In this document: positions 6,820 through 20,720 of the stretch, piece by piece
Layout: the number at the start of each line of letters is the position of its first letter
Numbering within the stretch: the first letter of the stretch is position 1
NCBI GenBank assembly: GCA_024655965.1
Contig: JANLFL010000001.1
Coordinates: forward strand, 22,049 to 86,048
DNA from: Caldisericota bacterium
GTDB lineage: Bacteria; Caldisericota; JANLFM01
Reading direction: 5' to 3'
DNA length: 64,000 bases
Notes under the pieces: generated by a model
Database searches by the model: none
What the model saw: only the letters and a program-made list of their open reading frames with translations
Told to the model about the DNA's origin: nothing
Translations under genes and position numbers: made by a program

Positions 6820-7544
6820 GGTTCTCCTTCAATTTCCAAAATGCTTTTTATTTTACCGTTAAAAACCTCTTTCAACTCCTTTATGTTTTCTAAAAAAAGG
6901 GACGGGTTTGAAGCCTTTAAAATTTCCCTCGAGACATAAGGACCGGGAATTCCAACGGTAAAAACACCTGCCCTCTTTCCCATTTCAATGTCCTCCGGGG
7001 AATCGCCGATATAAGCCGCCCGTTTAAAGGAAACCTTTAAACTCTTTATCAAGGATTCAAGAGGAAGAGGATCAGGTTTCCTGGTTCCAAAGTCCTCCAT
7101 GCAAACCACCCGGGAAAAGAACCCTTCAAGGTTGAAGACCTTTAGTTCGTCCTCCAGGCGATTTCTGTTTGCCGCTGAAAGAAGCGCCAAAAGAAAGCCT
7201 TTTCTCTTAAGCCATTCCAGAACCTCGAGGGCCCCATCCATTAAAGTTCGGGGACAATCCCGGTAGATCTCCAGCCAGCGGTTGTCAGCCCATTCGAATA
7301 ATTCTTCCGGGAGCCCCAGGGCTTTATAAGTCCGATACCAATTGGGAGAATAGTACTTGAATACGTCCTCGAGACGAAGGGGAATACCTGCTTCAGAGAA
7401 AATAACCCTGTACGCCTGAAGGGTGGCCTCCTTTGAGTTAAGCAGGGTGCCATCCCAGTCGAAAGCTAAGAGTTCAATAGAGGCCGGAACCAATTTCAGC
7501 GAGTCCACGTCTAATAGGTTAAAGTTTTTCCAGAAAAATGACAA
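6816..7544 (-). CDS. HAD-superfamily hydrolase (phosphoglycolate-phosphatase-like)
   Basis: DxDGT motif AFDWDGTLL and the late motif YIGDSPEDIEMGKRAG. Confidence 0.7.
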   Translation of the reverse strand: MSFFWKNFNLLDVDSLKLVPASIELLAFDWDGTLLNSKEATLQAYRVIFSEAGIPLRLEDVFKYYSPNWYRTYKALGLPEELFEWADNRWLEIYRDCPRTLMDGALEVLEWLKRKGFLLALLSAANRNRLEDELKVFNLEGFFSRVVCMEDFGTRKPDPLPLESLIKSLKVSFKRAAYIGDSPEDIEMGKRAGVFTVGIPGPYVSREILKASNPSLFLENIKELKEVFNGKIKSILEIEGEP

Positions 7545-7559
7545 TAAAGGAGGTATGAA

Positions 7560-8297
7560 ATGAAAATTGCAAGGTTTGCCCGAATACTTTCCATCTCTCT
7601 GATCATTTTCGGTTTTCTTTTTCTAAGCTTTTCCACCTTTAAGCTCCAGGGGGCTTCGGTTTCTGCGGCTGAGGAGGAAACGGTCAATCGAATCACGGTT
7701 TCGGGCGTGGGGACTGTGAAAGCCAAGGCGGATACGGTAGAGATCATCCTCGGAGTAACCACCGACGGGAAAACCGCCCAAGAAGCCCAGGGGGCCAACT
7801 CCACAGCAATGAACAATGTGGCGAGAACACTGAAAAACCTCCTCACCCCAAATGATCGCTGGGAGACCGCTTACCTTACCCTTTATCCCCAGTACGATTA
7901 CTCGGAGGAGGGGAAAGGAACGTTAATTGGCTTCAGGGCGGAAAACGGTATTCACATTGTCCTCTCTCAGGTTTCCCGGGCTGGGGAGATCATTGACGCC
8001 TGCGTGGAAGCCGGCGCAAACACGGTCTCAAGCATTCAATTCTCCTTGAAAGATGTGGAAAGCCTGAAGCTGGAGGCAATAAAACAGGCAATGAAAAATG
8101 CTGAGGGAAAAGCTACCGCGGCCCTGGAAGAGCTGGGGAAGGCCATCAAAGGGGTGGAAAGCATCAGCATCTCAGACTCCTATTATCCTCCCCTCCCCTA
8201 TTCTTATGCCAAAACGGAGGCTTTGGGGGGTGGGGCTCCAGTAGAACCTGGCCTCTTGGAAGTCCAGGTCAATGTCAACGTAACCTACACCTTCTAA
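7560..8297 (+). CDS. SIMPL/DUF541 domain secreted protein
   Basis: Signal anchor, then ITVSGVGTVKAKADTVEIILGV and the C-terminal VNVNVTYTF typical of SIMPL proteins. RBS aaaggagg lies 5 nt upstream. Confidence 0.65.
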   Translation: MKIARFARILSISLIIFGFLFLSFSTFKLQGASVSAAEEETVNRITVSGVGTVKAKADTVEIILGVTTDGKTAQEAQGANSTAMNNVARTLKNLLTPNDRWETAYLTLYPQYDYSEEGKGTLIGFRAENGIHIVLSQVSRAGEIIDACVEAGANTVSSIQFSLKDVESLKLEAIKQAMKNAEGKATAALEELGKAIKGVESISISDSYYPPLPYSYAKTEALGGGAPVEPGLLEVQVNVNVTYTF

Positions 8298-8374: not shown

Positions 8375-9433
8375 ATGCCGGAGTTCGTCAAAGCCCACCT
8401 ATTTGAATCTCTCGAGGGAGGAACTGCCAGATGCCTGGTTTGCCCCCGGGAATGCGTTTTAAAAGAAGGCCAGATCGGTTTCTGCGGAACACGGGTCAAC
8501 CAAGGTGGGGAAATTTACTCCATGATATACGGTATGGTCTCCTCGGTGGCCATCGACCCCATCGAGAAAAAGCCCCTGTTTCACTTTCACCCGGGGAGCC
8601 CCTGCCTTTCCTTTGGTTCCTTCGGTTGTAATTTTCGCTGCATCCACTGCCAGAACTGGAGCATTTCCCATCGGCTGGTTGAGAAAGGGATCCCTGATGG
8701 AAGGTACCTTTCTCCGCAGGATGGGGTAAAAATAGCGCTTGAAAACCAGGCAAAGGGGATTTCATGGACCTACAACGAGCCCACGATCTGGCACGAATAC
8801 ACCATGGATATGGGAAAAATCGCCAAAGAAAAAGGTTTGTACACCGTTTATGTGACAAACGGTTTCATCACCCCCCAAGCCCTGAAGGAGCTTTCCCAGG
8901 TTCTGGACGCCTTTCGAGTGGATTTAAAGGGCTGGGAAAAGGAATTCTGGAGAAGGATCTGCAAAATCGACGATCCCGCCCCTGTCTTTCGGGCAGCTTA
9001 CGAAGCAAAAAACAAATACCATATGCACGTGGAAGTGGTGACGAACGTCATCCCAACATTCAACGACGATGATCAGACCTTCACCAACCTCGCCCGGTGG
9101 ATATTGGATAACCTCGGAGCGGATTGCCCCTGGCATATCACCCGTTTCGTACCCTACCTGGAACTCTCCCATCTTCCCTACACTCCCCTTTCTACCCTGG
9201 AAAGGGGAAGGTCTATAGGCCTTGAGACCGGCTTGAAATTTGTATACTTAGGAAATGTCCCCGGCCATCCCGGGGAAAATACCTTCTGCCCCAAATGTGG
9301 CACCCTATTGATCGAGCGCTACGGTTTCTGGATCAAGAAGAACCTCCTTTCTTCAAACAACCATTGCCCAAAATGCGGGGAAAAGATTAATATAGTGGGC
9401 AGTATTGAGCGTCAAAAAAACCTCTTTTTTTAG
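8375..9433 (+). CDS. amrS: AmmeMemoRadiSam-system-type radical SAM enzyme
   Basis: N-terminal Cys-rich ARCLVCPRECVLKEGQIGFCG, radical SAM CNFRCIHCQNW, and a C-terminal zinc ribbon CPKCG...CPKCG. Confidence 0.7.
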   Translation: MPEFVKAHLFESLEGGTARCLVCPRECVLKEGQIGFCGTRVNQGGEIYSMIYGMVSSVAIDPIEKKPLFHFHPGSPCLSFGSFGCNFRCIHCQNWSISHRLVEKGIPDGRYLSPQDGVKIALENQAKGISWTYNEPTIWHEYTMDMGKIAKEKGLYTVYVTNGFITPQALKELSQVLDAFRVDLKGWEKEFWRRICKIDDPAPVFRAAYEAKNKYHMHVEVVTNVIPTFNDDDQTFTNLARWILDNLGADCPWHITRFVPYLELSHLPYTPLSTLERGRSIGLETGLKFVYLGNVPGHPGENTFCPKCGTLLIERYGFWIKKNLLSSNNHCPKCGEKINIVGSIERQKNLFF

Positions 9434-9445
9434 GAGGGAGGTTAA

Positions 9446-11137
9446 ATGAACCAAATCCCAATTGGCTTCGTTGTGGGAGAGGCCCGCTCCGATTCATTCC
9501 TTTTCGTCACCACTCCGGATCTTTGCCCCCCGAGGCTGGAATATGTCGTTCTAAAAGGTCTCCGGGAGAGAATTTCCGGGAAAGAAGAGGGTGTTGAGGT
9601 TCTGGCTCAGATCACAGAGCTCAGGGCTACTTCCCAGGTCTTTGATTCAGCCTTAACCTTTCAGGAAACGGAAACAATTCTCAGGGCTGAATACTCCGCC
9701 TCTCCCCGGATCCTCGCCACCGCAACCGTCCTTGGATACCTTGATTCCCAGGATCGGGTTTTCCTCCCGCGTTCCACTCCTCTTCCAGGGGACAGGGTTT
9801 TCGTGGCTCCCGACGATCTGCTTGAGAGATTCTTTACCAGGAATATTCAGGACGGAATTTTGGTGGGAACCCTGATAAATCGCCCCCAGGTCAAGGTCAA
9901 GATCGATCCTAATGGCTTAAGAAGGCATTTAGCAATCATTGCCCAAACTGGGGCGGGGAAATCCTACCTTTCTGGGATCCTCCTGGAAAACTTGCTTCAA
10001 TTGGGCGGGACGATCATCGTCTTCGACCCTAACTCGGATTATGTGTACATGAGGAAGGACCGAAGAGGAAAGGAAACCCCATTTTCGGGGGACATTTTGG
10101 TCTACCGGGTTCCCAATATTAAAGGAAGGCGATTCTCCGATGAGGAAATTGGAGGAAGCAATTCATACACCATTCAATTTTCCAGATTAGGGATCGACGA
10201 AATTTGTACTCTGGGGGGAATTCCCGAGAGTTATTCAAATATTCGGGAGGCAATAAAAAAGGCCTGCGCGGAACTTGAAGAGGACAATATCGATTACAAG
10301 CCCCCCGAACTGGCAAAAAAACTGAAGGAGATGGCCGGGATTTTGGAAGATGAATACCTTTCCCTTCACACTCAGAGGTTCCTCGAAGGAAAAGAAGAAC
10401 CCATCCCGGAACTTACTCCAAAAGGAGGGAAACGGAAGGGGCTTTCCCCCGATATTGAAAAAGGGGCGGAAAGGGCGATCAAGTATATCGAGAACCTTTG
10501 CTCTTACGATATCTGGGGATTCAGCGACGTCCCAATCGAAGAACTTTTAAAGCCCGTTCGCCTTTCGGTTATCGACCTTGCAGGCCTTGAAAGGAGCGTT
10601 ACGGAATTCGTCGTAGACAAAACTTTAAGGGAAATCTGGGCCAGAGCCACAACCGGAAAACTCCCGTATCCGGTTTTCGTGGTCCTTGAAGAAGCCCACA
10701 CTTTCGTTCCCCAGGAAAACAAGAGCCATTGCCGGGAAATCATAAACCGAATAGCTTCTGAGGGCCGGAAATTCAAAGTCTTCCTCATCGTGATCACCCA
10801 GAGGCCTCACAAAATTCATCAGGACACCCTGTCTCAATGCGCAAGCCAGATCATCATGAAGCTCACCAACCCCGAGGACCAGGAGGCAGTCAAGAAAGCG
10901 GCGGAAAATCTTTCCAGTGACTTGTTCGCCGACCTTCCCGGGTTGAACGTTGGGGAGGCGATCCTCCTCGGGACACTAACCAGGGTCCCTGTAATGATCA
11001 AAGCGGGTGAACGGATCACCCGGGAGGGGGGATCGGACATTGACGTACCCGAAGCCCTTAAGTTAGCTTTGCGAGAAAAGAAGATGAAAGTTCCCCCGGA
11101 GTTCCTTGAAAGGGTTGAACCCGAGGAAGCAGGGTGA
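9446..11137 (+). CDS. herA: HerA-type FtsK/HerA-superfamily ATPase (DUF87)
   Basis: N-terminal barrel PIGFVVGEARSDSFLFV, Walker A AIIAQTGAGKSY, Walker B VFVVLEEAH, and later ITQRP. RBS ggagggagg lies upstream. Confidence 0.8.
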   Translation: MNQIPIGFVVGEARSDSFLFVTTPDLCPPRLEYVVLKGLRERISGKEEGVEVLAQITELRATSQVFDSALTFQETETILRAEYSASPRILATATVLGYLDSQDRVFLPRSTPLPGDRVFVAPDDLLERFFTRNIQDGILVGTLINRPQVKVKIDPNGLRRHLAIIAQTGAGKSYLSGILLENLLQLGGTIIVFDPNSDYVYMRKDRRGKETPFSGDILVYRVPNIKGRRFSDEEIGGSNSYTIQFSRLGIDEICTLGGIPESYSNIREAIKKACAELEEDNIDYKPPELAKKLKEMAGILEDEYLSLHTQRFLEGKEEPIPELTPKGGKRKGLSPDIEKGAERAIKYIENLCSYDIWGFSDVPIEELLKPVRLSVIDLAGLERSVTEFVVDKTLREIWARATTGKLPYPVFVVLEEAHTFVPQENKSHCREIINRIASEGRKFKVFLIVITQRPHKIHQDTLSQCASQIIMKLTNPEDQEAVKKAAENLSSDLFADLPGLNVGEAILLGTLTRVPVMIKAGERITREGGSDIDVPEALKLALREKKMKVPPEFLERVEPEEAG

Positions 11138-12045
11138 TGCTACCCGGAAAGATTGTTTATTCCCCCCATTATCTCGTCCGTCTTGAAAATCACGTTTACC
11201 AGACGGAAAAATATTCCCTGGTAAAAGATAGGCTAATTCGGGAGGGCTGGGCGAAAGAAGAGGATTTCATCGAACCGGAACTCCCCTCAGAAGAGACCCT
11301 CCTTCTGGTCCATTCCCGGGAATACTTAAATGATTTAAAGGGGCTCAGGTTCACCCAGAGGACCTGTCGCGCGGAACTCCCCCTCACCCGGGATCTGGTG
11401 GATTCCGCACTTTATTCTGTTTCCGGAACCATCCTCGCTTTGGAGGAAGCTCTTAAGGCAAGGATAGGAATTCACCTCGGTGGGGGTCATCATCACGCTT
11501 TCCCGGACCACGCGGAAGGTTTCTGCTACCTTAACGACGTAGCCATCTGCGCCAGGCAGGCAATCGCAAAAGGGGTGGCTGAGAAAGTGGCCATCGTGGA
11601 CTGCGACCTCCACCAGGGAAACGGAACGGCTTTCATTTTTCAAAACGAACCCAGGGTCTTCACCTTCTCCATTCACGAGGAGGAAATTTACCCGAAAAAG
11701 GAGAAAAGCTCCCTGGATATCGGGCTAAACGGAGGGACGGGGGATATTGAATACCTCAGGGAGCTGGAAAGGGGCCTTACGGAAGTCCTCCGTTTCCAGC
11801 CCGAGTTGATAATTTATGTCGGTGGGGTTGATCCATTCCGCTACGATAAATTGGGAAGCTTAAAATTGACAAAAGAGGGCCTTTTAAAGAGGGACTCCAT
11901 GGTCCTCGGTGAATGCGCCCAAAGGAGGATTCCCTGCGTTGTTACCATGGCAGGAGGATACGCCTTCAAAGTGGAGGATACCGTTGACCTCCACTTTCAG
12001 ACGGTAATTACCGCTATCAGGTTTATGAAAATTTTAAATGGTTAG
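11134..12045 (+). CDS. Zn-dependent deacetylase, histone deacetylase (HDAC/AcuC/Aph) family
   Basis: Motifs GGGHHHAFPDHAEGFCYLNDVA, DCDLHQGNGT and MAGGYAF (catalytic Tyr). The start (GTG 11134 or ATG 11137) overlaps the herA stop. Confidence 0.85.
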   Translation: MMLPGKIVYSPHYLVRLENHVYQTEKYSLVKDRLIREGWAKEEDFIEPELPSEETLLLVHSREYLNDLKGLRFTQRTCRAELPLTRDLVDSALYSVSGTILALEEALKARIGIHLGGGHHHAFPDHAEGFCYLNDVAICARQAIAKGVAEKVAIVDCDLHQGNGTAFIFQNEPRVFTFSIHEEEIYPKKEKSSLDIGLNGGTGDIEYLRELERGLTEVLRFQPELIIYVGGVDPFRYDKLGSLKLTKEGLLKRDSMVLGECAQRRIPCVVTMAGGYAFKVEDTVDLHFQTVITAIRFMKILNG

Positions 12046-13198
12046 AATAGTCCTTACCGCGGATAACCATTTAAACGCTTATTACCGGAAAATGAGTCCC
12101 TCCCAGATGGGGGAAAGGAGAAAAGCCCTCCAATCGGCTTTTCACCAGGTCATCGAATTCTCCCTAAAAAACGCAGACATTTTCCTGCAAGCCGGGGACC
12201 TTTTCGATTCCACTGAGCCGGGATACGAGGACATTCTTTTCGCCTTGAGGTGCTTCCATCAATTGAGTGAGAAAGGGGTTAGGGCCTTCGCCATCGGGGG
12301 AACCCACGACACCCCCAAATCGAAAGAAAGAATGTCACCCCTGAGATTTCTCTCCGAGTTAGGGGTCCTCCATTTCTTCTCCAAAAAGACCGGGATTGAG
12401 ACTTCCAAGGTTAAGGTGAACGGGGTGGAAATTTCAATTGGGGGAATGTCCACAAATACCCGCTTGCCTAACTCAGAGGATCCGCTCAAAGGGGTGTCCT
12501 TCCCCGAATTCGGCGAACTAAACATCCTTCTTTTGCATTACGGCATCCAGGGCCATTACATTCCCGGGGCACAGGATTTAACCGTTCCCCTTGGAAGCCT
12601 TGACCTCTTGGAAGGAGTTAACCTGTTTGCAGTTGGACATTATCACCATCCCAGGGATTTTAGAATTGGCGAAAAATTAATAATTATTCCCGGTGCCACG
12701 GAAAGGATGGATTTTGGAGAGCGGGAGGAAAGCTGTGGATTTTATTATTTAGAATACCAGTCCGGGAAACTCGACTGTCAGTTCATCAAGGTTGAAACTC
12801 AACCAATGGGACAGGTTGTGGTCCGTTCCCCGGAAATCGAAAGGGCACTCGATCCCACCTCTATGATCCTGGAAAGGATACGAGAAGCATCAAACCCCAG
12901 AAAGCTCCTCAAATTAAAGGTGGAAGGAGTCTTCACTCCCGAACTTTACCACCAGGTCCAGTGGGCAAAAGTCTGGCAAGAAGGAAAAGCAGGGAACTTC
13001 TTCTTCGACATCGATCTGGCCTCAATGAAAATGAACCCGGCTAAACCCGATATTAAAACAGGAGGAGCAGGTTATTCGGAAAAGGAAGAAATCAAAAAAG
13101 TGGCTACAGCACTTGCAGAAAAAGCTTCCCCGAGCGAAAGGGAAATATTTCTCGATGCCCTTGATCTAATTATGGAGGAATACAATAAGCGAAGATAA
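12038..13198 (+). CDS. Mre11/SbcD-like metallophosphoesterase nuclease
   Basis: Calcineurin-fold motifs TADNHL, AGDLFD, GGTHD, LLLHYG and GHYHH. The start overlaps the deacetylase stop by 8 nt. Confidence 0.8.
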   Translation: MVRIVLTADNHLNAYYRKMSPSQMGERRKALQSAFHQVIEFSLKNADIFLQAGDLFDSTEPGYEDILFALRCFHQLSEKGVRAFAIGGTHDTPKSKERMSPLRFLSELGVLHFFSKKTGIETSKVKVNGVEISIGGMSTNTRLPNSEDPLKGVSFPEFGELNILLLHYGIQGHYIPGAQDLTVPLGSLDLLEGVNLFAVGHYHHPRDFRIGEKLIIIPGATERMDFGEREESCGFYYLEYQSGKLDCQFIKVETQPMGQVVVRSPEIERALDPTSMILERIREASNPRKLLKLKVEGVFTPELYHQVQWAKVWQEGKAGNFFFDIDLASMKMNPAKPDIKTGGAGYSEKEEIKKVATALAEKASPSEREIFLDALDLIMEEYNKRR

Positions 13199-15858
13199 TG
13201 ATCCTGATTAGAAAACTCCAGGTCCACAACTTCAAACAACTGGAAAATTTGAGCCTCTGGTTCCCAGAAAAAGGCAGTTTCCTGATCGAGGGGGCGAATG
13301 AAGCGGGAAAGAGCAGCCTTTTCGAGGCGATTTTCTTCGGGATCTTCGGAAGGCCACTTGCAGGAAGCCTTCCCGATCTGGTGAATTTTCAAGAAAACGT
13401 GAAGAAGGCCACCGTGGAACTTGAGATAACTGCGGAGGGTGAAATCCTTCACATTTTCAGGGAGATCCCCAAACAGGGAAACCAGAGCGCGTACTTGATA
13501 GTAAAAACCGAGGACGGAAAGGAGCTCGACCGCATCAGCAAAGTTAAGGTGGTTAACGATCGAATCGAAAGGGCATTGAAATTCGACTCTCAGGCTTTTT
13601 TGAACTCCTGTTTCGTGGAGCAGAAAAAACTTGGGAAGCTGGAGGAAGCAACTTCCCAAGAGAGGAGAAATGCTCTTTCCAAGCTTATCAACCTGGATTT
13701 CATGCTGGAACTCGAGGAGAAATTCAAGGTTAGCATGGAGGACAAAAACAGGTTGAATTCCCTAAAAGAAAGGGAGGAGCTTGCCAGGATCAGGGAGGAG
13801 CTTGCACCCCTTGAGGATCGGTTAAAGAAAGTGGAGCGCCAACTAAAGTTACTTTCCTTAAAAGGAAACCTGGAAAACCTGAAAAGGAACAAGGCGGAAA
13901 TCGACGAATGGAGGGAAAAAATTGCCTCCCTTGAATCAAAAAAGGTCCAGTTAAGAGAAAAGATCGAGACTTTGGAAAAATTGAACTCCCTGGCCACGGA
14001 AATCAGGATTTTTCTTTCCTCTCGCCAAAACCTCACCAATTTGCAAAAGCAGATGGAAGCAGTTGAAGGGGAGCTTGAGGAACTCAAAAAGAAAGGGGAC
14101 TCCATTCCCCAGCTCGAAGGACGGATCTCGCAGCTCCGGACCTTGAAGCGAAATTGGGATAGAATTCAGGACCTGGAAAACAAGAAAAGGGAGACCGAGC
14201 AAAAATTGGATGCGGTAGCGGGGGAAATCGACAAAAAACTCAAAAAACGTGAGGAACTTGAAAGGATTAAGGGGGAGAAGGAAGCCCTCAATGCCCAGCG
14301 GAAAGGACTTGAGGAAAAGGGTATCGAATTAAGGAATCGGGCAAAAAAGGAGCTTGCCCTTGCGATTGTTTTTCTCCTCTTGGCTGTTTCCATCTCCCTT
14401 CCTTCCATTTTCGGACTCCTGCCGATCTATCTCCTTTCCTTTCTAACTCTTTTAATTCCTGCGATTTTCTTTTCTTTGAAATCCAAAAAACGGAAAGAAA
14501 GGGCAAATTCCATCCAGAGAGAAATTCAGTCCTTCCTCGAACAGGAGCAAAAGCTCGCGGGAAAAATGGAAATTTTCCAAACCCCGGAATTCGACCTAAA
14601 ATTCGGGGGATTTGAAGAGGAATTAAATTTCTTAAGGGAAAGAAAAGCGAGAATTGAAAAGGCTTTGAATTCGGCCCTGGAAAAAGTCCAAAAAGAAGGA
14701 AGCCTCCTGGGAGCCAGGACCAGAGACGAGGTTGTCGGGGAGATCAATCGGTTGGAGGGAAAAATCGAGGATTTAAAAAAGGAGGTTGCCAGGATCGAGG
14801 ATAGGACAAATTACCTGAGGAACCTCTCCCAATCATTCCAAAAGCAATCCCTGGAGGAGGAAAAACACGGCAAAATCCTTCAAAATTTAGATCCCGGAAT
14901 TTACCTGGAAGAGGATTCTCTCAGGGGAAAATTGGCGGAGCTTCAAAGGAACCTTCAAGAAACAAAGGCAAGGGAGCTTAAAGCAGAATTGAGTGGACTG
15001 GAAAACGATGTCGGGGCTTTATCGGGTAGAGTGGAGATCAAAGAAAGGGAAAACCAAAAAATCCTTTCTGAATTAAAAGAAACCTGTTCGATTTTGGAAT
15101 TACCTTTTGAAAAAATCATGAATGGGGAAGACATTCCAGAGCTTGAAGCGCTCCCGCCTGTGGAAGAAAAGGTCATAAAAGGGGAAAGGGATTATCTTTT
15201 TGCGGAAAGGGAATCGATGAGGAAAAAGGAGGCGGAGCTCTCCGAAAAGTTGGGATTGAAAGAAATTGCCCTCGATTTTTCCTCCGCGAGAAAGGAGAGG
15301 GAGGATTTTGAGCACCAATTGAGGGTCAGGGAAATTGCCAAACAAATTCTGAGCGTCACACGGGAAGCCATTTATAACCAGGTCAAACCCCAGACGGAAT
15401 ACCACATGAGCCTTATTGTTCCCCTGCTCACTTCCAACAGGTACCAGGAAGTACAACTTACAGATGAATACAAGATCCGAGTCTGGGACGAAAGAGCAAG
15501 AGGTTACAGGGAAAAGGAGATCTTCTCAGGCGGGACCCAGGACCAGTTCTCCCTGGCTCTGCGTTTGGCTTTCGCCATGGCCACGCTTCCCCAGGAAAGG
15601 GGCTCATCCCCGGGGTTTATCTTCCTCGACGAACCATTCTCCTCCTCGGACATTGAACGAACAAAAGCCCTGGTGGAGTTACTGACCAGAGGGATCATCC
15701 ACGAGGTTTTTCCCCAGGTCTTCGTTATCTCCCATTCCACGGTCGTGGACCCTGAAGAGTTCGATTATTACTTATATTTGGAGAATGGGAGGGTTACAAA
15801 AAATACCATCGAGGAAATTCACAAGTACCCTCAGGAGGAACATGGGTTATTCCAATAA
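13198..15858 (+). CDS. Rad50/SbcC-like SMC-type ATPase with a central transmembrane hairpin
   Basis: Walker A GANEAGKS, signature FSGGTQDQ, Walker B FIFLDEPF, H-loop ISHS. Long E/K/L heptad arms. Hydrophobic aa 386-427. TAATG overlap with the upstream gene. Confidence 0.8.
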   Translation: MILIRKLQVHNFKQLENLSLWFPEKGSFLIEGANEAGKSSLFEAIFFGIFGRPLAGSLPDLVNFQENVKKATVELEITAEGEILHIFREIPKQGNQSAYLIVKTEDGKELDRISKVKVVNDRIERALKFDSQAFLNSCFVEQKKLGKLEEATSQERRNALSKLINLDFMLELEEKFKVSMEDKNRLNSLKEREELARIREELAPLEDRLKKVERQLKLLSLKGNLENLKRNKAEIDEWREKIASLESKKVQLREKIETLEKLNSLATEIRIFLSSRQNLTNLQKQMEAVEGELEELKKKGDSIPQLEGRISQLRTLKRNWDRIQDLENKKRETEQKLDAVAGEIDKKLKKREELERIKGEKEALNAQRKGLEEKGIELRNRAKKELALAIVFLLLAVSISLPSIFGLLPIYLLSFLTLLIPAIFFSLKSKKRKERANSIQREIQSFLEQEQKLAGKMEIFQTPEFDLKFGGFEEELNFLRERKARIEKALNSALEKVQKEGSLLGARTRDEVVGEINRLEGKIEDLKKEVARIEDRTNYLRNLSQSFQKQSLEEEKHGKILQNLDPGIYLEEDSLRGKLAELQRNLQETKARELKAELSGLENDVGALSGRVEIKERENQKILSELKETCSILELPFEKIMNGEDIPELEALPPVEEKVIKGERDYLFAERESMRKKEAELSEKLGLKEIALDFSSARKEREDFEHQLRVREIAKQILSVTREAIYNQVKPQTEYHMSLIVPLLTSNRYQEVQLTDEYKIRVWDERARGYREKEIFSGGTQDQFSLALRLAFAMATLPQERGSSPGFIFLDEPFSSSDIERTKALVELLTRGIIHEVFPQVFVISHSTVVDPEEFDYYLYLENGRVTKNTIEEIHKYPQEEHGLFQ

Positions 15859-16489
15859 AGCTTTTATTCTCCCGAGAGCAATTTTCTTCCTCCTTGCCCC
15901 CCTCTTTTTCTTGAGCCTAACCATATCTATTCTGGCTTTCGATCCAGGCTTTTTCTTCTCCCTTCAGAAAGGGATTGGGTACCCGGTAACCGATGCCACA
16001 TACGAGCTCGATAGGAAAATATCCAGTTCCTTGTTCTTCGGAGTCCAGGGAGAAAACCTCCAGGAGTTCTCCCAAAAGGAAATCCTCCACCTGGAGGATA
16101 TTCATAAACTCCTCCGCTCGCTTTTTATCTTTTCAATTTTCAGCGGCTTAACCTTTCTGGGATCTACCGTCTTTCTGGCGTTTAATGATATGAAGTTCCG
16201 GAAAATGCTTTTTTGGGGCTTCCTTTCCTCTCTCGGTTTTTACCTCATTTTAGGTCTCTTGTTTTTTTTATTTTTCGATTGGGCTTTTCTTAATTTCCAC
16301 CTGGCTGTTTTTTCAAATGATTACTGGATCCTTGGGGATGATTACCTCCTTTACCGCCTGTTTCCCCCGGAACTGTTTCAAAAAGCCCTCTTTCCCTTCT
16401 TTTTCCTCCTGATTTTTTTGACCTCGCTTTACTATATTCTTTCCTCCGCCATTTCCAGAAAATCCTCAAGGGCGCCCAAGGCTTCCTGA
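15842..16489 (+). CDS. DUF1461 (TIGR01906-like) integral membrane protein
   Basis: I prefer ATG 15842 (aggagg 3 nt upstream) over 15785. N-terminal TM helix, an extracytoplasmic segment with EILHLEDI, and three C-terminal TM helices. Confidence 0.5.
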   Translation: MGYSNKAFILPRAIFFLLAPLFFLSLTISILAFDPGFFFSLQKGIGYPVTDATYELDRKISSSLFFGVQGENLQEFSQKEILHLEDIHKLLRSLFIFSIFSGLTFLGSTVFLAFNDMKFRKMLFWGFLSSLGFYLILGLLFFLFFDWAFLNFHLAVFSNDYWILGDDYLLYRLFPPELFQKALFPFFFLLIFLTSLYYILSSAISRKSSRAPKAS

Positions 16490-16854
16490 GGATCACGGTA
16501 CCTAAAAAAGGTGAGATTCTTGTTCCCCTCAATCATTGCCGAAACTTTGACCCCCTCCCGGGCAAGGCAGAGCACTTTTTTCTTCAGGCTCAAAGCATAC
16601 CCAATTTCGTATCCAATCCCTGTCGAGGGGATGGAGACCTCGGCGATCAGAACATCTGAGGATTCGATCCAGGAAGTATCCCTTTCATAGACGAACTCTC
16701 GGGGAAGCTTGCTCTCACTTTCCCAGACCTCTGGTTCCAGAAGGTGCTCGGTCAAAATTTGGTGCCCTCTCTTCTGGAGAAATTCCTTAATATCCCTGTA
16801 AGGGACGGAGGGCGATTTTTCGACAATCACTGGAACAGCGAAGTAAATTTTCAT
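16432..16854 (-). CDS. 2'-deoxynucleoside 5'-phosphate N-hydrolase / nucleoside 2-deoxyribosyltransferase-like (DNPH1/Rcl family)
   Basis: MKIYFA..., DVLIAEVSIPSTGIGYEIGYA and SAMIEG match the DNPH1 family signature. Confidence 0.7.
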   Translation of the reverse strand: MKIYFAVPVIVEKSPSVPYRDIKEFLQKRGHQILTEHLLEPEVWESESKLPREFVYERDTSWIESSDVLIAEVSIPSTGIGYEIGYALSLKKKVLCLAREGVKVSAMIEGNKNLTFFRYRDPQEALGALEDFLEMAEERI

Positions 16855-16871
16855 TTTTATCCTTGCCCCTT

Positions 16872-16877
16872 TATAAT
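16872..16877 (+). promoter_or_regulatory. candidate -10 box for the SLH-protein gene
   Basis: TATAAT lies 40 nt upstream of ATG 16918. RBS gaaaggaagg lies between them. Confidence 0.35.
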
Positions 16878-16917
16878 ATTACCCAATTGATTTTAAGCGG
16901 TAGAAAGGAAGGCGTGA

Positions 16918-18195
16918 ATGAGGAAGAAATTTGTTTTCTTTATCCTTACACTGGCTCTTGTCCTGAGTCTTCCCCTTTCCCTGGTTGCCCAGGAGGAACC
17001 CCCACCCTTCCCAGATATTGAACCTCCCCATTCCCAGATCACCTACCCACAAAATGGGGCAACCTTGAATACAAACCCGATCGTGATCACCGGGACCGCC
17101 ACGGACAACGAATGGGTTCAAAAAGTGGAACTGGAGATCGCTTCCCCTTCCACCCCCACTCAGACATTTCTCTGCACCCCAGGCTCGGGAGGGGATTATT
17201 CAAACTGGTCCTTCACCTGGGTGAACCCGGCCCCGGGAACATACGTTCTAACTTCCATCGCCACCGACCGGCTGGAAAACCAGGAGGAGGAACTGGAAAG
17301 CATCATGATCACTGTCTCTTCCGGAATACAACCAATCCCTGATACCTACCCTCCATATATCGTTTTGATCTTCCCCCCTGTTCTGGAATATATGACTGAT
17401 GAACCCCAGCTTCAAATCGAGGGCCAGACGGAAACCGGAGCTCAGGTATTCATCAACGATGTTCCAATTACCGTCGAGGAAATTGGTTACTTCGCCCATG
17501 AAGTAACCCTCTCACCTGGTGAAAACATTTTCACCATCGAAGCCCGGGACCAGGCGGGGAACTCCACTTCCCTAAATTTAAAGATAGTCTTTTCAGAGGA
17601 GGGATTCACTCCAACCCCATCTCCAACTCAAACTCCGACTCAAACAACCACGCCTTCTCCCTCCCCTACCCCAACTCCAGGAACTTTTCCGGATCTCTCC
17701 GGCCATTGGGCGGAGGATTTGATCATGAACCTCGCCCAATTAGGGTTTGTCTCGGGATATCCCGATGGAACCTTTAAACCCGATAACCCGGTAACCAGAG
17801 GGGAATTCAGCGCGATCCTCTGCCGAGCTTTGGGAATCTCTCCTTCGGAGGGGAGTTCCAGTTTTCCGGATTTAAATGGCCACTGGAGCGAAAAATTTGT
17901 TATCCCCCTGGTGGAAAAGGGAGTGATCAAGGGATACCCTGATGGGACATTCGGGCCTGACCTTCAAATTAAAAGATGCGAAATTGCAGCCATCATAGCG
18001 AGAGCCTTGACCCTTCCTCCGATTGTGGGAAAACCCACTTTCTCGGACATCGACACCACCCACTGGGCTTTCGGTTTCGTGGAAACCTCGGTTTCCCGGG
18101 GGTTAATTAAAGGATATCCGGATGGGACATTCAGGCCCGAGAACCCTGCAACAAGAGCGGAAGCCTGCGCAATTATTGCCCGCTCATTAGAATAA
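16918..18195 (+). CDS. SLH-domain cell-envelope protein with Ig-like domains and a Pro/Thr linker
   Basis: Signal peptide, PTPSPTQTPTQTTTPSPSPTPTP linker, and three SLH repeats (FPDLSGHWAEDLI..GYPDGTFKPDNPVTRGEF, repeated three times). Confidence 0.85.
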   Translation: MRKKFVFFILTLALVLSLPLSLVAQEEPPPFPDIEPPHSQITYPQNGATLNTNPIVITGTATDNEWVQKVELEIASPSTPTQTFLCTPGSGGDYSNWSFTWVNPAPGTYVLTSIATDRLENQEEELESIMITVSSGIQPIPDTYPPYIVLIFPPVLEYMTDEPQLQIEGQTETGAQVFINDVPITVEEIGYFAHEVTLSPGENIFTIEARDQAGNSTSLNLKIVFSEEGFTPTPSPTQTPTQTTTPSPSPTPTPGTFPDLSGHWAEDLIMNLAQLGFVSGYPDGTFKPDNPVTRGEFSAILCRALGISPSEGSSSFPDLNGHWSEKFVIPLVEKGVIKGYPDGTFGPDLQIKRCEIAAIIARALTLPPIVGKPTFSDIDTTHWAFGFVETSVSRGLIKGYPDGTFRPENPATRAEACAIIARSLE

Positions 18196-18212
18196 ATGCC
18201 AATTCTTTTAAC

Positions 18213-18244
18213 AAAAAAAGCCCCTCCAAGGAGGGGCTTTTTTT
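18213..18244. terminator. bidirectional Rho-independent terminator between convergent genes
   Basis: A-run, then agcccctcc-aa-ggaggggct stem (18219-18238), then a T-run. Confidence 0.8.
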
Positions 18245-18263
18245 GTTTCTTTTCTTCAAATAC

Positions 18264-18905
18264 CTAAAGCGGGAAGAGCCCAAATTCCCCGGTTCTAAGA
18301 AGGGTAAGGACAATCAGAAAGAGAATTGGCCCCAGGGAGACGAGAAGTGCGGGACCAAGTTGAAGATCCTCCGTTTCTGCCAGGACCCCCGTCAAGAGGT
18401 AAACATGGAACAACAGGAAGATGATCAAGAAGATCAAGTCCGTAACCTTTGAGGGGATCAAGGAAAGCGCGGCATAAGGAACGAATGCTAACCAGGCCAC
18501 CCCGACCGCTAAAGCCATGTCTTTCAAGGGCGCGCCTTTTCCCTTGAAAAGCACCGCCATCAGACTCAAAGCGGTGGTCTCAAAAAGCCAAATCAGGAAG
18601 GGGGCAAAAAGCATGTAGAAGAACAGCCGGGCAACTACCCCCCCGGAGACATTTCTTAAGTCAATTAGAATGGCAATTCCCCCGAAAAGGCCAACCGCAA
18701 TAACACAAGCAAGGGCAAGCCACCACATTTTCTTTGAGATAACCGCGGCAAAGGCCTCCTTGGGATTGATGATGAAGTTCAGGAAGAATTTCCCCCAATC
18801 GAAACCCCCTGCCCGGACAACCGGAGCAGCAAGAGAAGTCCCGCAATTAGGACAGACCTGGCCTCCAGGGGGGATTTCGGCCCCACAATTGGGACAATAT
18901 GGCAT
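18264..18905 (-). CDS. zinc-ribbon plus Yip1-like polytopic membrane protein
   Basis: N-terminal CPNCGAEIPPGGQVCPNCG, followed by five hydrophobic helices. Confidence 0.5.
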   Translation of the reverse strand: MPYCPNCGAEIPPGGQVCPNCGTSLAAPVVRAGGFDWGKFFLNFIINPKEAFAAVISKKMWWLALACVIAVGLFGGIAILIDLRNVSGGVVARLFFYMLFAPFLIWLFETTALSLMAVLFKGKGAPLKDMALAVGVAWLAFVPYAALSLIPSKVTDLIFLIIFLLFHVYLLTGVLAETEDLQLGPALLVSLGPILFLIVLTLLRTGEFGLFPL

Positions 18906-19025
18906 TTATTGATCCTCCTTTCTCCAAAAGCCTTGTTGCCTTTATTTTAGACCCCTCAAGGGAGCCTGGCAAGATTAGGAAATAAAAAAAGGAAAAAAGG
19001 AAAAAATTAATAATCAGAAAGGTCC

Positions 19026-19310
19026 TTAATAAAGGTGAAAAAAACGGGTCAAGAAAAGATAAAGACCGCTTGTTAAAGCGGAAAAGGGAAGGACCAAAAG
19101 CCAATTTACCCCGAGAATGTTCCAGGGCATCACCTCACCCAATAGCCATTGAGCGAGAAACGCCCCGAGAAAGCCAGCAACCATTGAGGCGAGAACCCCA
19201 CCTGGTGCTTTACCTTTAGCGATTAAAAAATCCATCAGGAATCCCACAAGGCCCCCCAAGGTCAGGACCATCACCCAAATAAAAATTCCCCAATCCCTGA
19301 TGTTAGTCAT
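19026..19310 (-). CDS. GlsB/YeaQ/YmgE-family small membrane protein
   Basis: 94 aa, three TM helices with Gly-rich GGLVGFL and VAGFLGAFLAQW motifs. Confidence 0.65.
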   Translation of the reverse strand: MTNIRDWGIFIWVMVLTLGGLVGFLMDFLIAKGKAPGGVLASMVAGFLGAFLAQWLLGEVMPWNILGVNWLLVLPFSALTSGLYLFLTRFFHLY

Positions 19311-19376
19311 GGGTAAAATCTAAAAGATGGGGGGTTCCCGTGTCAATTGAAGGAGAAACCTAACTTCCAATGTTCC

Positions 19377-19405
19377 TTGAACCCACCCCAAAAACCATTT
19401 ATAAT
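19377..19405 (+). promoter_or_regulatory. sigma-70-type promoter of tRNA-Val
   Basis: TTGAAC (19377-19382), 17-nt spacer, TATAAT (19400-19405). The tRNA 5' end is 10 nt downstream. Confidence 0.6.
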
Positions 19406-19414
19406 ACACCCGGA

Positions 19415-19489
19415 GGGCGGTTAGTTCAGCGGTAGAACGCTTCGTTGACACCGAAGAGGTCGTAGGTTCGACTCCTACATCGCCCACCA
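19415..19489 (+). tRNA. tRNA-Val (anticodon GAC), CCA encoded
   Basis: Hand-folded cloverleaf: acceptor GGGCGGT/ATCGCCC (one G-U pair), D arm GTTC/GAAC, anticodon arm CTTCG-TTGACAC-CGAAG, T arm GTAGG-TTCGACT-CCTAC, then discriminator A and CCA. 75 nt. Confidence 0.95.
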
Positions 19490-19550
19490 TTTTTTTAAAG
19501 GAAACTCCAAATAACCTTCCTGCTATCATATAGATAATCAGGGATGAAAA

Positions 19551-20720
19551 ATGCCAACTTTCATTGATCTTCTGTTAAAGGAAATCTCCCAAAAAGCTCC
19601 CTCCCTTTTCAGGTTGTGGGAGAGACAGGCCTTGAGCAAGGAGGAGGAAACCCTATTTCAAAGGGCCCGGGACATCTGGTTGGCCGTTCCTGCAAGCCCT
19701 GGCAATCCTTCAGTTAAAGCTTTTGCCTGCGATGGTTCCATGATTGAGCGCTCCTTCAACAATGGGGCGACCATCTTCATCGGGCAGGCTCTACTCATTG
19801 GAAATGCCATCGAAGAAAAAAACCTAAGGGTGGACTTATTCAGGGGAGGCATGGAAAGGGGGACAATCGATCGGTTAAATTCCATTTTTCTTAAAGAATT
19901 GGAAGTCTCCCTTTGCTTGGAAAACATGGAATTGATGGAGGGAGGTGTCCTTTTCCTCGACGGGTCCCTGTATAGCACCCTCCCTCACCTCCTCTACCCC
20001 GTTTCCGGAGGGAGGGAGATTAGTCCACCGGATCCTGCACTTGACCTCCTGGAAAAAATCCTCCGCCTCCTGGAAAAAGCGGAGGAATTTAAAGTGAAAA
20101 TTATCTGTTTATCCAAGTCCTCTCACGATCTCCTCCTGTCCCGGAAACTTTACTTCAAAAGCTTAGAAGATGATATCCCCGAGGAGGAACTCCTAAAGCC
20201 TCAAGGGGAAGTCATTTCAGATTCAGAACTTCTCTTTCGTTCCACAAAAGAGCCCGGCTTTTCCCGCCCCCTGATGGTGGGGAAAATGTCCTTCTACCCC
20301 AGGCACTCCGCTCTTTTTTTGAACTTCAGGGAATTAGCCAAAAGGTTCTCCCCGGAGGAGGAAAAGGCCTTGCAAATCCTTGAAAAAATCTTGGACTCCC
20401 CCGCCCACGGCATTCTCTACTGGAGGCCATCAAAGGAAGACGATCCCATTCGGGTGGATTTCCCGTGGACCTTTGAGGATGAGAGGATTCCCTTGAGGGA
20501 GATTTTCGGAATTTTTCCCCGGGATGTTGAGAAGGTCTTCCCCATCCTTTCTCAGGTTCAAAGTTTCTACGGTGGGCCCAACGTTTACAATGCCCTTCTA
20601 TGGCAAGCGGACAGGGGGGTCCGGTTAACCAAGGAATTATCCGAAATTTACCTCGGGGTCATCAGCTCTAAGCTCGGGGAAAGGCTCAAGCTGGACCGAT
20701 CCTCCCGGAGGTTCCTTTAA
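19551..20720 (+). CDS. nurA: NurA-domain 5'-3' nuclease
   Basis: 389 aa. NurA-type acidic motifs FACDGSMIE and VLFLDGSLY. This is the usual partner of HerA. Confidence 0.65.
   Translation: MPTFIDLLLKEISQKAPSLFRLWERQALSKEEETLFQRARDIWLAVPASPGNPSVKAFACDGSMIERSFNNGATIFIGQALLIGNAIEEKNLRVDLFRGGMERGTIDRLNSIFLKELEVSLCLENMELMEGGVLFLDGSLYSTLPHLLYPVSGGREISPPDPALDLLEKILRLLEKAEEFKVKIICLSKSSHDLLLSRKLYFKSLEDDIPEEELLKPQGEVISDSELLFRSTKEPGFSRPLMVGKMSFYPRHSALFLNFRELAKRFSPEEEKALQILEKILDSPAHGILYWRPSKEDDPIRVDFPWTFEDERIPLREIFGIFPRDVEKVFPILSQVQSFYGGPNVYNALLWQADRGVRLTKELSEIYLGVISSKLGERLKLDRSSRRFL

Follow-up and report, generated by a model that had tools for sequence, protein, structure and literature searches.

The window analysed here, a 64,000 nucleotide (nt) stretch of contig JANLFL010000001.1 from a Caldisericota bacterium, encodes a HerA ATPase, an Mre11-like nuclease, a Rad50-like ATPase and a NurA nuclease, the four families of the archaeal herA-mre11-rad50-nurA operon. 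Five plus strand genes are chained over positions 9446-16489. In brief, herA (9446-11137) encodes a 563 amino acid (aa) protein with a PF01935 (DUF87) domain (4e-32) and is followed by a gene for a class IV HDAC-like deacylase (starting at 11134 or 11137 and ending at 12045; 302-303 aa; PF00850, Hist_deacetyl, 4e-59). The Mre11/SbcD-like nuclease (12038-13198, 386 aa) matches Pfam Metallophos and the NCBIfam model Mre11_Sulfo (2e-25), and the Rad50/SbcC-like ABC ATPase (13198-15858, 886 aa) matches Pfam AAA_23, SMC_N, SbcC_Walker_B and AAA_27. The last gene of the chain (15842-16489, 215 aa) encodes a polytopic membrane protein with matches to PF07314 (2.5e-9) and, under the cutoff, to TIGR01906 (50 bits). 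PF07314, once DUF1461, now has the name Lit; we refer to the protein as Lit-like. The nurA gene (19551-20720, plus strand, 389 aa; PF09376, 8.7e-13) lies outside the chain, behind a tRNA-Val(GAC) gene (19415-19489, plus strand, ARAGORN), and its start is 3.69 kbp from the stop of the rad50-like gene.

Read directly from the sequence, the four junctions of the chain are GTGATG between herA and the deacylase gene, an 8 nt overlap (ATGGTTAG) between the deacylase and mre11-like genes, TAATG between the mre11-like and rad50-like genes, and a 17 nt overlap between the rad50-like and Lit-like genes. Position 13198 is both the last base of the mre11-like gene and the first of the rad50-like start codon, and an AGGAGG ribosome binding site precedes the ATG of the Lit-like gene at 15842. 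Open reading frames (ORFs), domain matches and direct reading thus bear out the genes, the four start/stop overlaps, the tRNA-Val and the displaced nurA of a preliminary description of this DNA. That description counted three unrelated genes, two on the opposite strand, ahead of the tRNA; the displacement stands, but there are four ORFs, three of them on the minus strand. They encode a nucleoside 2-deoxyribosyltransferase-like protein (minus), an SLH surface protein (plus), a Zn-ribbon protein (minus) and a 94 aa product (19026-19310, minus) that is called as a gene in relatives also. The overlaps in the chain are weaker evidence than they appear, because about 14 of 49 same-strand neighbour pairs in the window overlap (crude gene calls) and unrelated enzyme genes overlap in relatives as well.

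HerA carries a Walker A motif (TGAGKS, residues 168-173) and a Walker B motif (EEAH, 415-418), both invariant across 18 homologues, and a weak HAS-barrel match (Pfam, 0.006). Its best solved relatives are the archaeal 9x1l (1.7e-48) and Sulfolobus 4d2i (7e-42), compared with 1e-27 or weaker for HerA structures from defence systems and 1.4e-7 for Deinococcus HerA. The archaeal HerA model of NCBIfam scores 208 bits (cutoff 970) and the antiphage HerA model 114 bits, both far under the equivalog cutoffs. From its motifs and matches, the protein is predicted to be an FtsK/HerA-type hexameric translocase ATPase, archaeal-type at the family level. The top match in species-representative genomes is a Caldisericota metagenome-assembled genome (MAG; locus L001) with 87% identity. 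Relatives outside the Caldisericota, at 45-58% identity, are plentiful; they come from Armatimonadota, Chloroflexota (Anaerolineae, Ktedonobacteria), Dictyoglomota and two archaeal MAGs; the nearest of them, at 50-58%, are bacterial, and HerA orthologues are on record for several Dictyoglomus species and MAGs. The closest non-Caldisericota HerA (P0008, 58% identity; L098, 4941-11779) is solitary and stands beside a 1567 aa DEAD/Helicase_C/MZB protein, with no NurA, Mre11 or Rad50 nearby. This context differs from the cluster in the window and is possibly of defence type.

In the Mre11-like protein all phosphoesterase motifs I-V are present (D9xH11, GD54, G-T89-H90-D91, H167 and G200-H201-x-H203), and a search against PDB matched M. 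jannaschii Mre11 at 1.3e-15. Motif III reads GTHD and not the canonical GNHD (residue 89, nt 12302-12304). Among 45 Mre11-like homologues this position is Thr in 16 and Asn in 28; the metal-ligand position of motif III is thus variable within the family.

The Rad50-like protein has the expected head motifs, namely Walker A (GANEAGKS, 32-39), signature (SGG, 777), Walker B (FLDEP, 809) and H-loop (ISHS, 844). Pfam SMC_N covers residues 4-848, and PDB Rad50 heads are matched at 1.5e-18. For the heads of Mre11 and Rad50 the best matches are proteins of M. jannaschii and P. furiosus, ahead of bacterial T. maritima and SbcD chains. We did not find a CxxC zinc hook anywhere in the Rad50-like protein or in 22 operon homologues. 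At the apex of its long coiled coils lies a 42-residue hydrophobic stretch, aa 386-427 (LALAIVFLLLAVSISLPSIFGLLPIYLLSFLTLLIPAIFFSL, encoded at 14353-14478 on the plus strand), with a Kyte-Doolittle mean of 2.57 over 19 residues. It is interrupted by SLPS and flanked by the Lys/Arg-rich RNRAKKE and KSKKRKE. Given the hydropathy, the SLPS break and these flanks, the apex is predicted to form a two-helix membrane hairpin with both ends cytoplasmic. A single-sequence AlphaFold2 model, of low confidence (mean predicted local distance difference test, pLDDT, 47.8) and used for secondary structure only, places helix-break-helix over 386-424 amid very long helices (about 180-745).

A central hydrophobic segment is present in 22/22 Rad50-like ORFs from clusters of other phyla, with no conservation of the segment's sequence. 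An exhaustive family search gave 4772 representatives, 366 of them at E <=1e-30, and the best 142 full-length ones were examined: a central hydrophobic segment was seen in 127 of them, a central CxxC in none. The Rad50-like protein belongs to this large family, which is hook-less and for which a membrane hairpin is predicted. Look-ups of the clusters for a name of this family gave only 'exonuclease SbcC' or a mis-annotation. The family-wide hydrophobic apex is real and, as far as we found, undescribed; a literature search for a transmembrane Rad50 tied to HerA/NurA gave nothing specific, and being incomplete it is no proof of novelty. If the hairpin is inserted as predicted, this Mre11-Rad50 variant would hold DNA via membrane tethering and not by hook-mediated bridging. 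A Bathyarchaeia MAG (L043, 3926-10597) has the bacterial-type order nurA-herA-mre11-rad50 and a hook-less Rad50-like protein with an apex Kyte-Doolittle value of 3.02, indicating that the hook-less variant is not confined to bacteria.

In NurA, a predicted 5'-3' nuclease, D61, E118 and D137 are invariant in a family alignment of 17 sequences and may form the catalytic triad. A search against PDB with the single sequence gave no match. The profile of the 17 sequences matches Sulfolobus 2ygk (5e-9), P. furiosus 3tai (3e-6) and T. kodakarensis 9x1l_G (1e-5). As the preliminary description had proposed, the HerA/Mre11/Rad50/NurA set is of archaeal type, in that its nearest characterised relatives in PDB and with the NurA profile are archaeal. 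NurA homologues with at least 46% identity form only seven clusters; the three contexts examined are all from herA-bearing lineages. The right-hand neighbours of nurA are conserved (ferritin, GlnA, a TRAM methyltransferase and others).

In four Caldisericota lineages nurA comes immediately after the tRNA-Val(GAC) gene. The two are 61 nt apart in the window, around 200 nt in L001, 11 nt in L093 (7915-8003) and 17 nt in L091 (7909-8003). L091 and L002 belong to one genome, in which nurA is on another contig than herA. It had been noted that nurA has no obvious promoter of its own; it does lie directly behind tRNA-Val, but a sigma-70-like sequence, TTGAAC-17-TATAAT, is found upstream of the tRNA at 19377-19405 (plus strand); it is no more than a match to the consensus. 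L091 likewise has TTGACG...TATAAT ahead of tRNA-Val. Because gaps of 11-17 nt from tRNA to start leave no space for a promoter, a tRNA-Val-nurA co-transcript is the simplest reading, and we suggest that nurA is probably co-transcribed with tRNA-Val from the tRNA promoter. The spacing also suggests that the nurA message would be nearly leaderless after tRNA processing.

Every herA-bearing lineage examined has kept nurA, either behind tRNA-Val or split from it by an integrase-bearing island. The latter is seen on contig k141_1196564 (L081, 19222-20909; L089, 1-8000), where about 21 kbp separate tRNA-Val and nurA. This stretch encodes a CDC48-like ATPase, gas-vesicle and two-component genes, with a tyrosine integrase beside nurA, and looks like an island integrated at the 3' end of tRNA-Val. 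We did not find any repeat of at least 14 nt of tRNA-Val or its 3' flank near nurA in L081/L089. The conserved tRNA-Val-nurA unit is real and, as far as we found, undescribed.

To place the cluster among other genomes, all ORFs of 80 loci (78 of them non-Caldisericota) were scored against the proteins of the window, and gene orders were compared over about 95 loci in all. The genes nurA-herA-mre11-rad50 stand on one strand in at least 22 of the 80 loci, mostly tightly packed, and several more such clusters are cut by contig ends. The loci with all four genes belong to Chloroflexota, Dictyoglomota, unclassified bacterial MAGs and one Bathyarchaeia MAG; examples are L021, L023, L037, L041, L042, L051, L064, L066, L067 and L043 (Bathyarchaeia). 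The archaeal-style set is thus normal in several bacterial phyla and not peculiar to this genome, contrary to the earlier statement that bacteria usually have only sbcCD or herA-nurA.

The layout in the window is a Caldisericota clade-specific reshuffle of this set, with the deacylase gene between herA and the mre11-like gene, the Lit-like gene after the rad50-like gene, and nurA behind tRNA-Val. A gene-order check agreed with the preliminary description that the layout is rearranged: it differs from other genomes and recurs in five or more related lineages. Caldisericota relatives whose HerA is 69-87% identical have conserved TAATG and ATGGTTAG junctions as well. The position of the deacylase gene inside the repair operon is unique to this Caldisericota clade. 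A lateral origin had also been proposed. We reject a recent lateral acquisition into this genome, since the G+C content does not shift anywhere in the region and lineages with as little as 69% HerA identity have the same layout. The sequence of the window itself was found in sludge and bioreactor metagenomes.

Upstream of herA are genes for a SIMPL protein (7560-8297) and an AmmeMemoRadiSam radical SAM enzyme (8375-9433), both on the plus strand and identified with Pfam and NCBIfam. The gap from the radical SAM gene to herA is 12 nt and holds a ribosome binding site. We found no promoter-like site between these two genes, the nearest being at 7538-7567, before the SIMPL gene. Given the short gap and the lack of such a site, the genes from SIMPL through Lit-like probably form one seven-gene transcription unit of mixed function, and co-transcription is therefore a weaker argument for a shared function. 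The SIMPL and radical SAM neighbours are kept in all related loci, and the wider flanks are syntenic housekeeping genes in the Caldisericota lineages (Ddl, FolD, aminotransferase, HAD, SIMPL, radical SAM, GlnA and TRAM methyltransferase). A strong bidirectional terminator lies at 18210-18247, 3' of the SLH gene. The minus strand deoxyribosyltransferase-like gene converges on the Lit-like gene with a 58 nt 3' overlap (16432-16489); convergent overlaps of a similar kind occur in relatives, for example one of 92 nt in L084.

The best solved relative of the deacylase is HDAC11/B of Leptospira interrogans (9GZ5/9RJD), aligned over near full length at 2.7e-80. The catalytic motifs GGGHHH, DCDLHQGNG, GVDP and GGY are present, comprising the His-His dyad, the Zn ligands and the catalytic Tyr, and so is the clade-B Glu of the ELP motif (ELPLT). 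By these motifs we classify it as a predicted class IV (HDAC11-like, clade B type) Zn-dependent lysine deacylase, and not a SIR2 enzyme. Clade B is marked by an L2 Glu and a bulky hydrophobic gatekeeper (Phe or Tyr) of the foot pocket. Clade-B HDAC11 enzymes have been discussed as defatty-acylases, and the gatekeeper Phe of HDAC11-type enzymes is reported to be critical for defatty-acylase activity and acyl-chain specificity (PMC13325672). The foot-pocket gatekeeper (residue 119), just before the His-His dyad, is His in the Caldisericota homologues, except for Tyr in one (P0130), and Phe in the outgroup deacylases examined, except for Trp in P0169. Lineages have the change from Phe to His irrespective of whether they carry the repair genes. 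More distant homologues, at about 50% identity, are frequent in WOR-3, Latescibacteria and other groups, where their contexts are unrelated.

In three Caldisericota lineages (L084-86, L096 and L097) we found the gene order SIMPL, radical SAM, deacylase, Lit-like, deoxyribosyltransferase (minus), SLH, Zn-ribbon (minus). This is the neighbourhood of the window without herA, mre11 and rad50, which are absent at that locus. For L084-86 the protein occurs on 22 contigs. The deacylase gene directly adjoins the Lit-like gene here; the two overlap by 4 nt in L097 (3398-5031) and are separated by 10 nt in L084 (10001-11609) and 24 nt in L096 (1970-3580). Their adjacency hints at a deacylase/acyl-transferase-like pair with a function of its own. 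No homologue of either protein was found within 10 kbp of herA in any of the 78 non-Caldisericota loci. In other phyla, different and unrelated inserts occupy the same junctions of the herA-mre11 cluster. Two Anaerolineae (L005, 10059-11767; L006, 11886-13609) have a two-gene module between herA and mre11 that matches HEC-01, which PADLOC lists as a candidate for a defence system (ATPase 1.3e-69, partner 3.8e-12).

The persistence of the pair without repair genes at the locus, its absence near herA elsewhere, the unrelated inserts at the same junctions and the frequency of overlaps in this genome together make it most likely that the deacylase and the Lit-like protein are operon passengers, a pre-existing or independently retained pair, and not subunits. 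The view in the preliminary description that a resection machine gained two extra subunits is, for the first two of these reasons, probably wrong.

Taking the locus as a whole, we consider it fairly probable that it encodes a chromosomal housekeeping machine for DNA end processing, NurA-HerA plus Mre11-Rad50, that is tethered to the membrane, has a clade-specific gene order and is interleaved with passenger genes. By homology, a dimer of the Mre11-like nuclease on the Rad50-like ABC ATPase would recognise, nick or trim DNA ends. A HerA hexamer would push the duplex into a NurA dimer, which would degrade the 5' strand or both strands, leaving 3' tails for RecA. The apex hairpin of the hook-less Rad50-like protein would probably tether the complex to the cytoplasmic membrane, as proposed architecturally for SbcE/SbcF. 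We suggest that herA and the mre11-like and rad50-like genes are probably transcribed with the upstream SIMPL and radical SAM genes and the interleaved deacylase and Lit-like genes, and that nurA is probably expressed separately, with tRNA-Val. The deacylase and Lit-like pair would then serve its own function, possibly related to acyl transfer. Rearrangement and interleaving with unrelated genes explain the clade-specific gene order. In all this, the identities of the genes, their motifs and orders and the hydrophobic apex of the family are observed; that the proteins form complexes, that the hairpin enters the membrane, that the genes are co-transcribed and that two of them are passengers is inferred.

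Several observations weigh against this interpretation. The herA/deacylase and deacylase/mre11 overlaps are kept throughout the herA-bearing clade, down to 63% deacylase identity, and such two-sided translational coupling exceeds what a random passenger needs. If herA and mre11-rad50 were inserted around a deacylase gene already in place, the most economical cause would be selection for co-expression. The trees do not settle the direction of change: a rooted and bootstrapped deacylase tree gives no resolved order among the clades, and a concatenate of six markers, unrooted, splits the lineages with repair genes from those without at 88% bootstrap. For the tether, membrane insertion is predicted from hydropathy and flanking positive charges only, and the AlphaFold2 model has low confidence (pLDDT 47.8). 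As to transcription, no RNA runs with the window sequence are listed, only DNA runs from sludge and bioreactor metagenomes.

The same overlaps (TGATG/TAATG and ATGGTTAG), kept in every herA-bearing lineage examined, are what would be expected if the deacylase were a genuine regulatory component in this clade. It could strip acetyl groups or longer acyl chains from lysines of HerA, Mre11, Rad50 or nucleoid proteins and so gate resection; with its gene placed between herA and mre11 on one mRNA, it would be made in amounts that match theirs. The deacylase lacks no catalytic residue and has the clade-B Glu, which has been linked to peptide or protein substrates (PMC13325672), and trees that give no polarity leave room for an insertion of the repair genes around it. 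Yet the deacylase gene is kept beside the Lit-like gene, and even coupled to it, in the three lineages whose locus has no herA, mre11 or rad50; none is found near herA in the 78 loci of other phyla. Its His gatekeeper is shared with lineages lacking the repair genes there, and so is no adaptation to them, and overlaps of unrelated genes are common here. We regard a regulatory role as doubtful, while taking it seriously as an alternative. Some Caldisericota clades have repair genes around this deacylase gene and others do not, a contrast that offers a natural test of a role for HDAC11-type enzymes in bacterial DNA repair.

A broader proposal, which we hold to be rather improbable, combines this recruitment with the architecture of the Rad50-like protein. 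Here the clusters of Chloroflexota, Dictyoglomota, Caldisericota and some archaea would represent a distinct class of membrane-anchored end-processing machines in which the hook was replaced by a transmembrane hairpin. The machines would act at the envelope, for example on incoming or segregating DNA, and in the Caldisericota the deacylase would have been recruited as a co-translated regulatory subunit. Control of resection by deacetylases is known in eukaryotes, and such a recruitment, if true, would be its bacterial counterpart.

A role in defence or DNA surveillance would likewise make use of the predicted tether, which would sit where DNA enters. A membrane-tethered Rad50/Mre11 sensor-nuclease together with HerA-NurA would degrade entering linear foreign DNA, be it from a phage, a plasmid or transformation, with chromosome repair as a side activity. 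PADLOC HerA models do match (best 2e-45), as does the Rad50-like head to Lamassu LmuB (2e-26). Presence and absence of the genes differ between sister Caldisericota clades, SbcE is polar in competent cells and affects transformation (PMC2811018), and a role against extrachromosomal DNA was speculated on by the authors of archaeal work (PMC3326311). However, the PADLOC matches lie in shared ATPase cores, there are none for NurA, Mre11, the deacylase or the Lit-like protein, and no known system is so composed. HerA is far closer in score to archaeal repair HerAs than to defence HerAs, the cluster sits in a conserved housekeeping neighbourhood and not in a variable island, and the bona fide defence-type module HEC-01 is a separate insert within the Anaerolineae cluster. 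The HerA-based surveillance system offered in the preliminary description thus finds no support in a PADLOC run with generic HerA and SMC-head matches only, a deacylase of class IV HDAC and not SIR2 type, and housekeeping synteny. A PHROGs scan gave only SbcCD-like matches, and an assignment to a defence system or phage was dropped on the generic results of both searches. A dedicated defence role is unlikely, and we give it little credence; a membrane-tethered end-degrading machine could act on entering DNA.

That the locus is a decaying remnant of a once contiguous nurA-herA-mre11-rad50 operon, heading for loss and with no function beyond co-location, is scarcely credible: a sister clade is without the genes at this locus and nurA is detached, in one lineage by a further 21 kbp behind the integrated island, but the four genes are intact, their catalytic motifs are conserved in every herA-bearing lineage, and protein identities of 41-87% across these lineages with no frameshifts point to purifying selection.

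Anti-phage systems such as SIR2-HerA and DUF4297-HerA likewise have a HerA-family ATPase beside an enzyme gene, and the antiphage HerA models of PADLOC and NCBIfam match the HerA of the window. They differ in that the enzyme here is a predicted Zn-dependent class IV HDAC, PADLOC finds no effector, the scores are under those to repair HerAs, and the context is housekeeping. The deacylase shares the dyad, the Zn ligands, the catalytic Tyr and the clade-B Glu with Leptospira interrogans HDAC11 (9RJD/9GZ5), whereas the gatekeeper is Phe there and His here.

The archaeal herA-mre11-rad50-nurA operon of Sulfolobus, Pyrococcus and Thermococcus, with end resection as its presumed role, contains the same four families, and archaeal proteins are the best solved relatives of the window's HerA, Mre11 head and Rad50 head. 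By its HerA, NurA, Mre11 and Rad50 head the window therefore resembles an archaeal-type system; it departs from one in the zinc hook and in the single cluster. The Rad50-like protein is without a CxxC hook and has a hydrophobic apex instead. In the bacterial relatives the order is nurA-herA-mre11-rad50, and in the window nurA is detached (3.7 kbp away, behind tRNA-Val) and unrelated genes are interleaved. The scores are, moreover, far under the archaeal equivalog cutoffs of NCBIfam.

The NurA-HerA of Deinococcus radiodurans and Thermus thermophilus likewise consists of a bacterial NurA nuclease and a HerA ATPase and is implicated in end resection (PMC9960219, PMC4663267), but Deinococcus HerA is a distant match only (1.4e-7). 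For these bacteria nurA-herA is treated as an operon, and linkage to Mre11-Rad50 is described for archaea only; the four-gene operon is described as archaeal, and bacterial NurA-HerA only in Deinococcus-Thermus (PMC9960219, PMC4663267). In contrast, the window and its relatives have Mre11/Rad50-like genes adjoining herA. We found no description of the four-gene cluster in bacteria (Chloroflexi, Dictyoglomus) in a literature search that was incomplete and so is no proof of novelty. Contrary to the archaeal-only description, the full HerA/NurA/Mre11/Rad50 set is common in several bacterial phyla, with its genes closely clustered.

Of the architectures described, the nearest is that of SbcE (YhaN) of B. 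subtilis, an SMC-like ATPase which is without CxxC, has a unique, hydrophobic and insoluble central domain between its coiled coils, and partners the SbcD-like SbcF (YhaO) in break repair and transformation, forming polar foci in competent cells (PMC2811018). The Rad50-like protein of the window is likewise hook-less with a hydrophobic centre and has an adjacent mre11-like gene. The neighbours of sbcE are yhaO and yhaM, and a HerA or NurA gene is unmentioned (PMC2811018). As to family membership, the YhaN-type AAA_27 (PF13514) matches the Rad50-like protein with 28.7 bits (cutoff 22), a partial match (profile positions 3-86 of 206) that AAA_23 outscores, and no YhaN-type model of NCBIfam matches; we liken the two proteins by architecture. 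Through its hook-less Rad50 the cluster would be tied to SbcE/SbcF of the Firmicutes, a pair that is itself poorly understood.

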